64,000 nucleotides of DNA from a virus (taxonomy: Duplodnaviria > Caudoviricetes), in IMG/VR virus record IMGVR_UViG_3300034062_006701; one strand, given 5' to 3'. Made by a program: the position numbers and the translations under genes. Positions 221 through 6,992 of this stretch are shown piece after piece. The first letter of the stretch is position 1; each line of letters begins with the position of its first letter. The notes under the pieces were generated by a model. That model saw nothing but the letters and a program-made list of their open reading frames with translations, did not search any database and was not told the origin of the DNA.

Positions 221-265
221 AAAAAAACCGGAGCTGGAATGTGACTAGCACCCAACTCCGGTTTT
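221..265 (-). terminator. Intrinsic terminator closing the RNA operon
   Basis: Minus strand: ACCGGAGTTGG / CCAGCTCCGGT 11-bp stem (one G-U) followed by a T run. Confidence 0.8.
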
Positions 266-344
266 CTCTTTTATACGATCCTCTCACCAACGCGCTGGTA
301 TCAACAAGGCATCGAGTCTGCTTTTCTTTATTCCCTCTGCATTT

Positions 345-930
345 GTGCTGGGGTTACAACACGATTAGGACTTGAGACCTTTGGCGACTACGGATAGCTA
401 ATCCATTCACCAGTAGCATTACTAAAGAAATTATTGGTATTGAAAGATTTTATTCCGGATTTTGTTCTTTCCTCAACGGGTACCGGCATGGAGCCAGCGC
501 GCCGTCCAGTCTGTGTTTATTAAAGCAAGGGATCAAAGCTGTACGCAGGTTTTTGGCTCCCCCTCTGAAAATACGTCTACTAACTTACCAACAGACAACT
601 CAACGCATCTCTCCCACGGATTATACCTACAACGCGGGAACTTATTTTAATGATTACTGGCCTATCGGAGCTAGGAAGTTTATAGCTCCCGTTCTTTAAG
701 ACTTGTGAAACTCTTAAAACTACTAGGTCGCTACTACCCGCGGCTTCGGACTAGTATTGCTACTACCGAGAACTATACGCAGTAATCAAATTATTATGAC
801 CGGGGTGGTTGTAATCCATCCTAGTGCACCGGTTGATGAAGGCCTTTCAGAGCGAACCTAGTCACGCACACGTACGGTTCAGACCTTAGATGGTCTTCGG
901 CTCTTTCGATCGAGCCTGCGAACGGTCAAA
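345..930 (-). ncRNA. Large ornate ncRNA, GOLLD-like (~590 nt; ends approximate)
   Basis: No credible ORF; many hairpins (GGCTC/GAGCC, GACC/GGTC, GAACC/GGTTC, ACCGG/CCGGT, TAGTA-GCAA-TACTA, TTTAAGA/TCTTAAA, GGAGCTA/TAGCTCC); perfect long-range helix TGATTACTG/CAGTAATCA (780-788 with 651-659); ordered blocks CGTTGAGT, CTCCATGC, TGGATTAGC..GCCAAAG and terminal GTGTTGTAACCCCAGCAC resemble the GOLLD 3' domain as I recall it; directly downstream of a tRNA. Confidence 0.65.
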
Positions 931-932
931 TT

Positions 933-1005
933 TGGCAGGGCCGGGAATCGAACCCGGAATCTTGTGGTTATGAGCCACACGACTTAACCGTTTGTCCACC
1001 CTGCG
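933..1005 (-). tRNA. tRNA-Met (CAT), initiator-like
   Basis: Cloverleaf CGCAGGG..CCCTGCC A; anticodon arm TGTGG-CTCATAA-CCACA; T arm CCGGG-TTCGATT-CCCGG; C1.C72 mismatch; CCA not encoded. Confidence 0.9.
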
Positions 1006-1018
1006 TTAAAATGTACTA

Positions 1019-1071
1019 TCAAAGATCAATTCTTATTCCATTAATATATAGTCTATAGTAGGGACTGGCAA
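1019..1071 (-). promoter_or_regulatory. Sigma70-type promoter plus boxA-like element for tRNA-Met and the GOLLD-like RNA
   Basis: TTGCCA (1071-1066), 17-nt spacer, TATATT (1048-1043), then TGATCTTTGA (1028-1019). Confidence 0.7.
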
Positions 1072-1081
1072 GAATAAAAAA

Positions 1082-1158
1082 TGGCACGTGGTGAAAGAAT
1101 CGAACTTTCCCAATCGCTTTTGGAGAGCAATTCGCCTATCCTTGGAACATTACCACGC
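1082..1158 (-). tRNA. tRNA-Trp (CCA)
   Basis: Acceptor GCGTGGT/ACCACGT, G73, encoded CCA; anticodon arm TTGCT-CTCCAAA-AGCGA; T arm GAAAG-TTCGATT-CTTTC; weak D arm. Confidence 0.85.
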
Positions 1159-1164
1159 AAAAAG

Positions 1165-1247
1165 TGGAGCCTGTGGAGGGACTCGAACCCCCGTTGTTTG
1201 TATACCACTTTACAAAAGTGGTGCTGTCGCCGCTGAGCCACACAGGC
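1165..1247 (-). tRNA. tRNA-Thr (TGT) with a 12-nt variable region
   Basis: Acceptor GCCTGTG/CACAGGC, U73, encoded CCA; anticodon arm CCACT-TTTGTAA-AGTGG; T arm GGGGG-TTCGAGT-CCCTC. Confidence 0.8.
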
Positions 1248-1262
1248 GTGAAAATTATTTAG

Positions 1263-1347
1263 ACCGCAACTAGAGCGAATTCAATCTTTCGGAGGATTGC
1301 TAATACCTCGTTCCTAACAGGAATTCTACCTGCTCTCTAATTGCAGT
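1263..1347 (-). ncRNA. Unassigned 85-nt structured RNA
   Basis: Ends pair in a 13-bp stem with G-U pairs (ACTGCAATTAGAG / CTCTAGTTGCGGT) enclosing hairpins GCAGG-TAGAATT-CCTGT and CAATC-CTCCGAAA-GATTG; sits between tmRNA and tRNA-Thr. Confidence 0.6.
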
Positions 1348-1351
1348 AAAT

Positions 1352-1800
1352 TGGTGGAGGCGTCGGAGATCTGCCCTCCGAGTCCTTATAATATTTCTCT
1401 TATATTTTCTACACGCTTATGTAAGTTTAGGATTTGATTGACTACAGGCTCCTATGGCTTACCAGCCTATCTTTTTAAGTCTGCCTATATAGATGAAGAG
1501 TTCTATACAACCCCTTGTACTGAGTTTTCTAGGAGTCACAAGTACCTCCATAACCTATTGGTTTAGCTCCCTAAGATCTTTAATAGGATCCAATCTTAGT
1601 TTTTAGGCAGCGAGGAGTGACTCTTCTTCGCAGCTGGCGAGGATATCGTCAGCGTTGTTGAAACAGTACTCAGCTTCTGCTAAGAGCGCATCGATGTTAT
1701 CTTCTGCGTTTAGTTTTTTAGAAGGCTTTTATAGTGGCCAACCTTCCAACCACTGCGTGCAATATAAAACCAGACTATAAGTCGATTCTATGTCGCCCCC
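1352..1800 (-). ncRNA. ssrA: tmRNA (one-piece, 449 nt)
   Basis: 5' GGGGGCGACATAGAATCGAC; 3' CGCCTCC-A-CCA giving G3.U70; pk1 (GTGG/CCAC, GAAGGT/GCCTTC); resume context AAACTAAAC-GCA; tag ends LAA. Confidence 0.93.
1603..1707 (-). other. tmRNA tag reading frame AEDNIDALLAEAEYCFNNADDILASCEEESLLAA*
   Basis: Resume codon GCA at 1707-1705 to TAA at 1605-1603; 34 sense codons. Confidence 0.85.
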
Positions 1801-1807
1801 ATAAATT

Positions 1808-1872
1808 TCAAAGATCATTGAGCGTATATGCTCTTATTTCCTATAATATATATGCTCTAGAGAGTGTGGCAA
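1808..1872 (-). promoter_or_regulatory. Sigma70-type promoter plus boxB-like hairpin and boxA-like element for the tmRNA-tRNA operon
   Basis: TTGCCA (1872-1867); -10 TATATT or TATTAT (16 or 18-nt spacer); hairpin GAGC-ATATAC-GCTC (1833-1820); TGATCTTTGA (1817-1808). Confidence 0.7.
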
Positions 1873-1918: not shown

Positions 1919-3652
1919 ATGCCTGATTATAACCCTAATGTTATTGCAAATCCTCAAGTAGCGGAATACGGAAAGTTTACACAATTGAATGGTTCACGCT
2001 TCCCTGCTGTTTCTGTTACAAGGGTTCAATATCCAGATAAATCACAAGCATTTCCAGGGAATACTAACGCTCTCCCTGTAACAACCATCGACATATATCC
2101 AAAGTTTGGCGTATTAAGCTATATAACTAATACTGATGACTTCGCAGTATCACTGAGTGCAGGTCAGATCAATCTCGATACATCGCTAATTGAATTTCAT
2201 ATTTCAAATATAGATGCGGAGACTACTATCATGGCTAACGCTCTCACGGCGACAGAATGGAACACATTTGATGCAGCTTCTGGTATTAATGAGTTGAATT
2301 TTAATTTTCTCAACGCTGTATCGGCGCTAAGTACAACCATTGTCAATCCTGTGATTATCGGTAATAGAGGTAACGGTAATACAGCTACCGTTTATGCTCC
2401 GACTTCCTCTCTTAACGTCAATGTTACAAATACAATTAACAGCATTACAACACCAGAGCCAACACAACTTGATGCTTTTGGTCGTTTAAGAGTCTCAACA
2501 CCTCTCACACTTTTTGATTCTTCCCACCGTTATAGAGATAATAATCTTTGGTCATCATTAACTGCTGTAGGTGGGACCTATGCATTTAATGCAAATCAGG
2601 GATTGATAGATCTAACAGTAAGTTCGTTATCAGGTTCTTCAGTTATCAGAGAAACAACAAAAGTGTTCTCATACCAACCTGGTAAAAGTTTACTCGTAAT
2701 GAATACGTTTGTAATGGCTTCTTCTGCTACAGATTTAAGACAAAGAGTAGGTTATTTTGGAAGTCAGAATGGAATTTATTTTCAATTAGATGATGGTAAT
2801 ATTGGTCTGGTTAAAAGATCTCTTGTGTCGGGTTCTGTTGTAGATACTATAGTTTTAAGGTCTAGTTGGAACGGAGATAAGTTAGATGGGACAGGAGCCT
2901 CTGGATTAACTCTTGATATAACAAAGGCTCAAATATTTTGGATGGATATTGAATGGCTTGGTGTTGGATCAGTTCGTACAGGTTTTATTATTAACGGACA
3001 GTATATTGTTTGTCATTCCTTTCATCATGCTAATATAATTGATTCTACATACATAACAACAGCATCTCTACCTTTAAGATATGAGATTACAAATAAAGCT
3101 GCTACAGGTGTTTCTAAAACTTTAAAGCAGATATGTTCTTCTGTTGTTTCCGAAGGTGGTTATGAATTAAGAGGTCTTCAACAGGCAGTAGGTACCGCTA
3201 TAACAGCACCAAGAAGTCTTGGAACACCCGCAGGAACCTATCGCCCTGTTGTTTCAATTAGATTAAAAACATCTCCAAATAGATTAGATGCAATAGTAAT
3301 ACTAACAGCTTTATCTGTAATGGGTGTTGATACAGGGATATATAGTTGGCGAGTAATTGCTTCTGGAACAACTGTTGATGGTACTTGGCAGGATGCAGGA
3401 GTTGATTCAGCAGTTGAATATAAATTAGATGGAACAAGCATTACTGGCGGAAGAATCTTAGCACAAGGATATCTTACATCAAACGCACAGGGCGCAACAA
3501 CAGTTGATATTTTAAAGGAAGCTCTTTTTAAATTTCAATTAGAAAGAAATGGACTTACAGGTGTTCCTTATGAACTTACTTTAGCAGTAGCAGCAAGTAC
3601 ACAAAATGAAGTTGTACATGCTTCAATGGATTGGGAAGAGATTAGCAGGTAA
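1919..3652 (+). CDS. Conserved phage protein, probably virion-associated (beta-rich C-terminal domain)
   Basis: 577-aa ORF behind a late promoter; block DAFGRLRVSTPLTLFDSSHRY is familiar from aquatic phages. Confidence 0.6.
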   Translation: MPDYNPNVIANPQVAEYGKFTQLNGSRFPAVSVTRVQYPDKSQAFPGNTNALPVTTIDIYPKFGVLSYITNTDDFAVSLSAGQINLDTSLIEFHISNIDAETTIMANALTATEWNTFDAASGINELNFNFLNAVSALSTTIVNPVIIGNRGNGNTATVYAPTSSLNVNVTNTINSITTPEPTQLDAFGRLRVSTPLTLFDSSHRYRDNNLWSSLTAVGGTYAFNANQGLIDLTVSSLSGSSVIRETTKVFSYQPGKSLLVMNTFVMASSATDLRQRVGYFGSQNGIYFQLDDGNIGLVKRSLVSGSVVDTIVLRSSWNGDKLDGTGASGLTLDITKAQIFWMDIEWLGVGSVRTGFIINGQYIVCHSFHHANIIDSTYITTASLPLRYEITNKAATGVSKTLKQICSSVVSEGGYELRGLQQAVGTAITAPRSLGTPAGTYRPVVSIRLKTSPNRLDAIVILTALSVMGVDTGIYSWRVIASGTTVDGTWQDAGVDSAVEYKLDGTSITGGRILAQGYLTSNAQGATTVDILKEALFKFQLERNGLTGVPYELTLAVAASTQNEVVHASMDWEEISR

Positions 3653-6872: not shown

Positions 6873-6914
6873 ATTATGATTATAATAAAATTATTTTAGG
6901 ATTGCAATAAAAAC

Positions 6915-6987
6915 CTACGAGGGAAAGGCTCGAACTTTCAACCGGCAGATCCAAATTCTGCTGCACTACCAATTGTGCTACCTCGTA
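6915..6987 (-). tRNA. tRNA-Gln (TTG)
   Basis: Acceptor TACGAGG/CCTCGTA (U1-A72), G73; D arm GCAC/GTGC; anticodon arm GCAGA-ATTTGGA-TCTGC; T arm GAAAG-TTCGAGC-CTTTC; no CCA. Confidence 0.85.
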
Positions 6988-6992
6988 ATAGG

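Follow-up and report, generated by a model that had tools for sequence, protein, structure and literature searches.

What does a phage encode in a stretch of about 1.6 kb that holds no protein genes, and do the RNAs made there work as one system? This question is raised by a locus in IMGVR_UViG_3300034062_006701, a viral DNA (Duplodnaviria; Caudoviricetes) of 64,000 nucleotides (nt), which as a whole is called the window here. The locus carries a transfer-messenger RNA (tmRNA), an 85-nt element, three transfer RNAs (tRNAs) and an ornate RNA of about 510 nt, referred to as the large RNA. In this study we propose that the locus is a stable-RNA gene cluster made of two units, each led by a boxA-like motif, and that it includes a new family of self-pairing RNAs with a 3' end made by a twister-type ribozyme, a reading that we consider probable, although far from certain. 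Relatives of the window are designated by L or G numbers throughout.

All features between 1872 and 221 lie on the minus strand. In the direction of transcription, promoter 1 is followed by a hairpin, a boxA-like motif, the tmRNA, the 85-nt element, tRNA-Thr and tRNA-Trp, and promoter 2 is followed by a second boxA-like motif, tRNA-Met, the large RNA and a terminator. A preliminary description of this DNA, made from its letters alone, had given the same gene order, which is borne out by Rfam, ARAGORN and a promoter scan. Its statement that the region has no credible protein gene also holds, the longest open reading frame between 140 and 1900 having at most 62 amino acids, and its division of the locus into two promoter-leader units agrees with the hexamers TTGCCA and TATATT and the two copies of a 12-mer that these units share. 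The terminator that it announced is present but lies at 261-221, beyond the limit of 345 set there, so the module spans 1872 to 221 rather than 1872 to 345.

Results

The large RNA and its relatives

The large RNA runs from 932 to 421 on the minus strand and consists of a conserved core and a 5' accessory domain, with a ribozyme-like element and a terminator at its 3' side:

644..932, minus strand, 5' accessory domain, two sub-domains closed by UGACCG/CGGUCA and UGAUUACUG/CAGUAAUCA
435..643, minus strand, conserved core of about 205 nt, helices P1-P7 and pseudoknots PK1 and PK2, from covariation
323..429, minus strand, twister-type (type P1) ribozyme-like element, full-length match to RF03160, about 5 nt after the core
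221..261, minus strand, intrinsic terminator, 10-base-pair (bp) GC-rich stem CCGGAGUUGG/CCAGCUCCGG and then seven U, read from the sequence

A search of positions 150-2000 of the window against all Rfam families gave no match for the large RNA at E <= 10. Membership of GOLLD (RF02032) was rejected at this threshold and also by the absence of a match at the place of the large RNA in five relatives (gathering score 150 bits), membership of ROOL (RF03087) was rejected because its covariance model gave no match at E <= 10, and RNase P, 6S, SRP and other Rfam families were set aside for the core, none of them appearing at E <= 10. The first lead to a family came from blastn, where weak similarity to two related phage genomes pointed to a conserved block within their tRNA arrays. 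A pattern derived from this block found 14 viral contigs, nearly all with tRNAs on one or both flanks, and a covariance model, R1, added members that the pattern had missed, one of them in a complete genome of 211 kb. The family now has 17 distinct sequences in about seven lineages, all from uncultured phage contigs and mostly inside tRNA regions. In metagenomes the pattern is loose, with at least 118 loci that match mostly by chance and true members in seven of them, so the spread of the family is under-sampled. Blastn with three family members against 50,697 records of cultured phages returned only tRNA-like pieces or nothing, and the strict pattern had no match among prokaryotes, searched with one genome per species, so that no prophage copy was found there. 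R1 found no member in the whole genome of T4 or in cyanophage S-CRM01; a partial match of 14.8 bits in that search was judged to be noise. Judged by these comparisons, the large RNA is a new family that is absent from Rfam.

Only the core is common to all members, the 5' domain and the 3' extension being specific to the clade of the window. The 5' domain has 79-83% identity in L204 and L216 and has modules in common with L090 and L098. Compared with L090, L098 and L091 it appears as a mosaic, in which sub-domain 1 is of the L090 type and sub-domain 2 of the L098 type, which suggests an exchange of RNA modules by recombination between related phages. In another clade, clade B (L081, 1580-1718; L082, 1383-1500), a conserved extension of about 150 nt adjoins the 3' side of the core; it is unlike the twister and has no Rfam match at E <= 5, and after it comes an odd tRNA-like gene that ARAGORN overlooked.

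Fold of the conserved core

Nine helices are packed into the roughly 205 nt of the core, and three of these are pseudoknots. RNAalifold gave 13-14 compensated pairs in a structure of several hairpins and the long-range helix GYYUGU/ACARRC. Reading lineage by lineage added three crossing helices, PK1, P3 and PK2, each of which occurs in several compensatory versions. PK1 joins the P1 loop to the P4 loop, pairing GUAGG with CCUGC, CCUAC or CUUAC, GCAGC with GCUGC, or CAUGAC with GUCAUG. P3 crosses P2 and is found in six versions of up to 12 bp; a small hairpin that RNAalifold placed after P2 was dropped because it conflicts with the better-supported P3 pseudoknot. PK2 joins five bases after P2 to the 3' tail, as UAGUG/UACUA or UGGUR/UACCA, and is paired in every cell of an alignment of 12 core sequences. 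Over the whole fold, 81% of the cells in these 12 sequences pair, against 32-49% when the partners are slid, and 23 pairs have changes on both sides, against 5-10 in the controls, in an alignment that still misplaces some columns.

Palindromic loops

The P7 loop of 18 nt is made up of ACAA, two variable bases, a palindrome and an A-rich tail. In the window the palindrome is UCCGGA at 459-454, and across the lineages it takes six forms (UCCGGA, UUCCGGAA, UCCUAGGA, UCUAGA, UACUAGUA and UUCUAGAA). When it is read as four symmetric pairs, 92% of the cells pair, against 33-75% when slid. Covariation is seen in two of the four, one being that of the adjacent central bases 198/199. Since adjacent bases cannot pair within one chain, this pairing would be between copies of the RNA. 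The same argument from palindrome covariation was made by Kretsch et al. for the symmetric kissing loops of OLE and GOLLD, which were verified by cryo-electron microscopy (PMC12286853), and the P7 loop shows a matching signature. The first hairpin of the 5' domain (916-899), with the loop GAUCGAAA, has a stem that covaries in the clade of the window and a loop that always carries a 4-nt palindrome, UCGA, UGCA or AGCU, followed by a run of A. This loop is a possible second self-pairing interface, with weaker evidence because 4-nt palindromes are common by chance. As the core loop, and probably the 5'-domain loop too, is self-complementary and covaries as a palindrome, we propose that the mature large RNA most likely works as an assembly of identical chains, a homodimer or a higher homo-oligomer.

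The 3' end of the large RNA

The element that follows the core matches RF03160 with 28.3 bits in the window and with 32.2 bits at the equivalent place in L090, below the gathering score of 67.2; the E values, 2e-4 and 2e-5 respectively, come from short searches. It follows the canonical stem order of that family, P1, UAA, P2, (P3), P4 with L4, (P5), AAA, P2', L1, P1', with an A after the cleavage site and two pseudoknots that link L4 to L1 and L2. On seven aligned homologues 85% of the cells of this fold pair, against 34-56% when slid, and 10 pairs are changed on both sides, against 0-5 in the controls. Both-sided changes are found in each of P1, P2, P4 and P5, of which P2 has only three pairs, and the stems P3 and P5, not obligatory in twisters, are present in some homologues and missing from others. 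In known twisters the pseudoknot T1 pairs three C of loop L4 with GGG of L1, and T2 pairs two further L4 bases with the conserved GC of L2 (PMC5408937). In contrast to RF03160, the L4 loop here is GUCUCAAGUC instead of GUCCCAAGCC, with both partners changed to match: CUC/GAG replaces the consensus CCC/GGG in T1 and AC/GU replaces GC/GC in T2, L1 being GAGAG in six of the seven homologues and L2 being AC. T1 and T2 pair in 100% of the cells in the seven sequences, and both pseudoknots are kept, the changes in L4 being matched by changes in L1 and L2. Of about ten nucleotides in L1 and L4 that are conserved to more than 97% in twisters, two C positions of L4 have become U, with compensation in their partners, and the UAA at the cleavage site is invariant. 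From this fold we infer a self-cleaving ribozyme of the twister type, with a predicted cut, GU^AA, between 421 and 420, about 14 nt after the core.

At the place of the terminator, the relatives have a different GC-rich hairpin with a U-run. The window and L216 also have an extra conserved hairpin region between the twister and the terminator (275-322, minus strand), and instead of it other relatives have a 12-nt palindrome, GAGTTCGAACTC, ahead of the terminator.

Promoters and leaders

Each unit begins with a promoter and a short leader:

1845..1872, minus strand, promoter 1, sigma-70-like, TTGCCA, 16-18 nt spacer, TATATT, from a consensus scan
1820..1833, minus strand, boxB-like leader hairpin, 4-bp stem GAGC/GCUC, read from the sequence
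1806..1817, minus strand, boxA-like motif TGATCTTTGAAA, 5 nt 5' of the tmRNA start
1043..1071, minus strand, promoter 2, sigma-70-like, TTGCCA, 17 nt spacer, TATATT, from a consensus scan
1017..1028, minus strand, boxA-like motif TGATCTTTGATA, separated from the large RNA by tRNA-Met in the window

Promoter-like sequences are found at the position equivalent to promoter 1 in the tmRNA leaders of L090 and L132, and the position of promoter 2 is kept in L090, L091, L098, L132, L204 and L216. The 12-mer TGATCTTTGAWA has exactly two perfect copies in the 64 kb, one per leader, at 1817-1806 and 1028-1017. Among the relatives, the 9-mer GATCTTTGA lies just 5' of the tmRNA in L006, L090, L097 and L132 and just 5' of the large RNA in L090, L091, L098, L132, L204, L216 and L224, so that nine relatives in all keep its position before one or the other; the boxA-like motif is there 6-15 nt upstream of the start of the large RNA. 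A hairpin of differing sequence occupies the equivalent place in L090 and L132, 2-3 nt 5' of the 9-mer, which is thus preceded by a hairpin in three tmRNA leaders, the hairpin sequences being unrelated and covarying.

The motif agrees at 9 of 11 positions with GYTCTTTAANA, the boxA consensus of gamma-proteobacteria (PMC5725501). It agrees at 9-10 of 12 positions with GAACCTTGAAAA, the cyanobacterial boxA of the internal transcribed spacer (bioRxiv 10.1101/2021.01.08.426015). In ribosomal RNA (rRNA) operons, Nus factors bound to boxA block Rho termination of untranslated transcripts (PMC5725501). The boxA-like reading is strengthened by the position of GATCTTTGA, kept before the tmRNA or the large RNA in the nine relatives, and it is plausible that the motifs of both leaders act as putative antitermination sites of the boxA type. 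The leaders resemble the boxA/boxB leaders of rRNA operons and phage lambda, and the boxA before CRISPR (clustered regularly interspaced short palindromic repeats) arrays, in having a short U-rich motif near the promoter of a long untranslated transcript, and they resemble rRNA-operon (rrn) leaders specifically in the hairpin ahead of the motif. They differ from rRNA-operon and lambda leaders in that the motif deviates from the E. coli consensus at two positions and serves a phage tmRNA and a non-coding RNA.

The tmRNA, the 85-nt element and the tRNAs

The remaining genes of the two units are as follows:

1352..1800, minus strand, tmRNA, Rfam RF00023, 85.7 bits, E 8e-32, cut-off 47
1603-1707, minus strand, tmRNA tag reading frame, 34 amino acids with an LLAA end, then UAA
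1263..1347, minus strand, 85-nt multi-hairpin element, beginning 4 nt after the CCA end of the tmRNA, fold z = -3.5
1165..1247, minus strand, tRNA-Thr(UGU), 83 nt, ARAGORN, Rfam 55 bits
1082..1158, minus strand, tRNA-Trp(CCA), ARAGORN, Rfam 21 bits (under the cut-off of 29), 92% homologue in L098
933..1005, minus strand, tRNA-Met(CAU) of the initiator type, ARAGORN, Rfam 60.9 bits

The tmRNA is recognized by its model match, by tRNA-like ends with CCA and by a tag frame that ends in a hydrophobic AA degron. Its tag is acidic and is kept across the phage clade far beyond the C-terminal degron (LLAEAE-x-IFNNA...EE-x-LLAA). L091 and L216 have a different tag, also long, with an LAIAA end, and the tmRNA of L091 (3284-3935, minus strand) has an apparent span of about 650 nt against 449 nt in the window, which suggests a large insertion.

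The 85-nt element is also present in L091 and L229, each time right after the 3' end of the tmRNA. By-eye comparison of the three copies shows about 94% identity, against only about 80% for the tmRNAs of the same three sequences, and one compensatory change from G-C to A-U in the 13-bp closing stem. In L091 the element is followed by a T-run, and L132 has a tmRNA without it. This constant place ties the element to the tmRNA, for which it may provide a 3' end or stability.

tRNA-Thr(UGU) carries an unpaired 12-nt insertion, AUACAAACAACG, in its variable region; several relatives have the same gene with 94-95% identity and others have an ordinary tRNA-Thr of 72-76 nt. In tRNA-Met the 1:72 pair is mismatched and A11:U24 is present, both hallmarks of initiator tRNAs, and the first acceptor pair is non-standard in the Rfam alignment. 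A fourth tRNA gene, tRNA-Gln(UUG) at 6914-6988 (minus strand), stands alone amid DNA-metabolism genes about 5 kb from the cluster.

Co-occurrence in relatives

Co-occurrence of the tmRNA and the core was judged among six complete or nearly complete relatives:

G002, tmRNA present, core present, spacing 5.5 kb
G003, tmRNA present, core present, spacing about 1 kb
G008, tmRNA present, core present, spacing 26 kb
G010, tmRNA present, core absent
G011, tmRNA absent, core absent
G012, tmRNA absent, core absent

In L204 and L091, a separate promoter and terminator serve the large RNA, and the nearest 12-14 kb hold no tRNA.

Genomic setting and expression

The neighbours of the locus are phage genes, with PHROGs families for a virion protein, endonuclease V, an exonuclease and a helicase. 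The virion protein at 1919-3652 has about 67% identity (tblastn) to proteins of the T4-like cyanophages S-RIM50, S-RIM8 and S-WAM2, and DNA nearly identical to the window is present in many lake metagenomes. By these comparisons the source is an uncultured freshwater T4-like myovirus, with cyanophages as its nearest cultured relatives. No host marker emerged when ten proteins of the window were scanned against Pfam; as a guess, the host that first suggests itself is a cyanobacterium.

In lake metatranscriptome assemblies, tmRNA contigs have depths of 82-186, whereas the contigs next to them reach 3-4. RNA-library runs of two studies contain relatives of the large RNA at depths of 3.6-11.9. All these contigs are weak support, with gaps over parts of the stretch and no information on ends or strand; the gaps, and a contig that stops close to the predicted cut, are given no weight here.

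Discussion

We envisage that each of the two host-type promoters would start one untranslated transcript, and that the boxA-like motif in each leader would recruit host Nus factors, RNA polymerase being carried through about 0.8 kb of untranslated RNA. Unit 1 would yield the tmRNA with its long conserved tag, the 85-nt element fused to the tmRNA 3' end, tRNA-Thr and tRNA-Trp, and unit 2 the initiator-type tRNA-Met and the ornate RNA. The 5' end of the latter would come from tRNA processing and its 3' end from the twister-type cut, which would leave the ribozyme and the terminator behind and give a mature RNA of about 510 nt. Our best guess is that this RNA acts on the translation or RNA-processing machinery of the host.

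The large RNA invites comparison with GOLLD and ROOL, which are likewise large, pseudoknotted phage RNAs of unknown function adjoining tRNA genes. It resembles GOLLD in having a conserved 3' part and a variable 5' part, a resemblance that, as with its context, does not extend to the sequence, and it lies downstream of tRNA-Met as GOLLD env-38 does (PMC12286853). However, its core of about 205 nt and total of about 510 nt compare with about 580 nt and more than 800 nt in GOLLD and ROOL, the helix plan is another one, one clade has a 3' twister, and multimers of the large RNA are a prediction. Another likeness is to the stable RNAs C and D of T4 (rnaC and rnaD), small RNAs of unknown function harboured by the tRNA cluster of a T4-like phage; these, however, measure 119 and 139 nt, and R1 finds nothing in T4. 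We speculate that, besides GOLLD and ROOL, the large RNA may represent a third class of self-assembling phage RNA, unrelated to either. Each chain would have two different self-complementary loops, in the core and in the 5' domain, and chains released by the twister would join into closed rings or cages during infection. This proposal is tentative and, in our judgement, rather doubtful.

How the large RNA relates to the other RNAs of the locus can be read in several ways. The preliminary description had taken them all as a single system, in which the large RNA and the 85-nt RNA would work physically with the tmRNA and the tRNAs, for example as a cage that shelters tRNAs or as nuclease decoys. 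The core does lie within or beside tRNA genes in most relatives, the self-complementary loops permit multimers, and GOLLD and ROOL, also found near tRNA islands, form cages (PMC12286853). Nevertheless, the claim is weakened by the relatives, in which the components (tmRNA, tRNAs, 85-nt element and large RNA) show partly independent assortment, the outcome that the description itself had set as speaking against it: the complete relative G010 has the tmRNA without the core, the two are 26 kb apart in G008, and L204 and L091 have no tRNA near the large RNA. The 85-nt element is found in three lineages only, always behind the tmRNA, and neither complementarity to tRNAs nor a tRNA-like decoy feature was found, so that a joint machinery of this kind appears quite unlikely to us. 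Because the genes often cluster and yet can be separated, it would fit better that they cluster through shared transcription and processing and not as one obligate complex. As for the cage idea, the covariation of the palindromic loops lends indirect support to its self-assembly half. It is improbable, in our view, that the core acts in cis only, serving the folding, spacing or processing of polycistronic tRNA precursors and having no function once released. Such a role would suit clade B, where the core sits directly between tRNAs with spacers of a few nucleotides, but L204 and L091 have the core as a stand-alone unit with no tRNA, and the presence of a dedicated ribozyme and a self-pairing loop speaks for a stable RNA that is set free. 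Finally, the density of helices and pseudoknots in the core is typical of catalytic RNAs, and unpaired stretches such as GUUGARGAA are invariant, with a UCCAU loop in 16 of the 17 members. These features would be expected if the core were a trans-acting ribozyme in its own right, for example in tRNA or tmRNA processing or repair, rather than a scaffold; yet the core is unlike any Rfam ribozyme, RNase P included, the UCCAU loop is replaced in L224, and no substrate is evident, which leaves this the most improbable of the roles considered.

The assignments of the leader motif and of the ribozyme also have competitors, and several observations weigh against the reading that we favour. GATCTTTGA could be a leader motif of other purpose, such as a nuclease cleavage site or a binding site of a phage protein, rather than a Nus-factor site. 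Two of its positions deviate from the gamma-proteobacterial consensus, with an A where that boxA has a pyrimidine, and in L006 and L097 the motif lies only 6-7 nt 5' of the tmRNA with no promoter nearby. Against this stand its fit to the cyanobacterial boxA, the rrn-like order of hairpin and then boxA, and its occurrence ahead of long untranslated RNAs only, so that another purpose seems possible but somewhat unlikely. The antiterminated leaders of the preliminary description thus stand as far as motif conservation and cyanobacterial likeness go, and Nus binding itself is our inference from them. For the twister-like element, an inactive relic or a chance look-alike, with a transcript that simply ends at the terminator, is an unlikely alternative that nevertheless deserves serious weight. 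The score of 28-32 bits is about half of the cut-off of 67, P2 has a mismatch besides its three pairs, it is unusual for a twister to sit 3'-terminally in a large non-coding RNA, and two positions that are almost invariant in twisters are altered; moreover, of all the copies that of the window is the weakest, P4 having an A-A mismatch and T1 a U-G wobble. However, both altered positions are mirrored by changes in their pseudoknot partners, and four stems covary around an invariant UAA, which argues for a ribozyme of the twister type. The other two clades have neither the twister nor the 5' domain, so both must be dispensable for the function of the core. Folded alone, the large RNA is unexceptional (z = -1.5), and the case for its reality therefore rests on homologues and covariation. 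The variants of the P7 palindrome represent perhaps four or five independent events, and each of them is a palindrome of 6 bp at the DNA level as well. The analysis itself shows gene identities and homologues, the fold, the covariation of the palindromes, the twister fold and the conservation of the motifs; self-cleavage, oligomerisation, Nus binding and the biological role are deduced from these results.

In summary, the locus touches on several aspects of phage RNA biology. The conserved tag of 34 amino acids is a hint that trans-translation in phages goes beyond the addition of a degradation signal, and the boxA-like leaders suggest that phages borrow antitermination of the rRNA style for their own stable RNAs. 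If the ribozyme reading is true, the twister-like element would clearly exemplify a self-cleaving ribozyme whose task is evident, the making of the 3' end of a non-coding RNA, and twister variants with compensated pseudoknots would be seen to escape the current Rfam model. Protein-free cages have recently been shown for GOLLD and ROOL, and their purpose is unknown. If the self-assembly reading is true, an unrelated family in the niche of GOLLD and ROOL with the same palindrome signature would point to convergent evolution towards self-assembling phage RNAs, and its core of about 205 nt would provide a smaller object for structural and genetic work.

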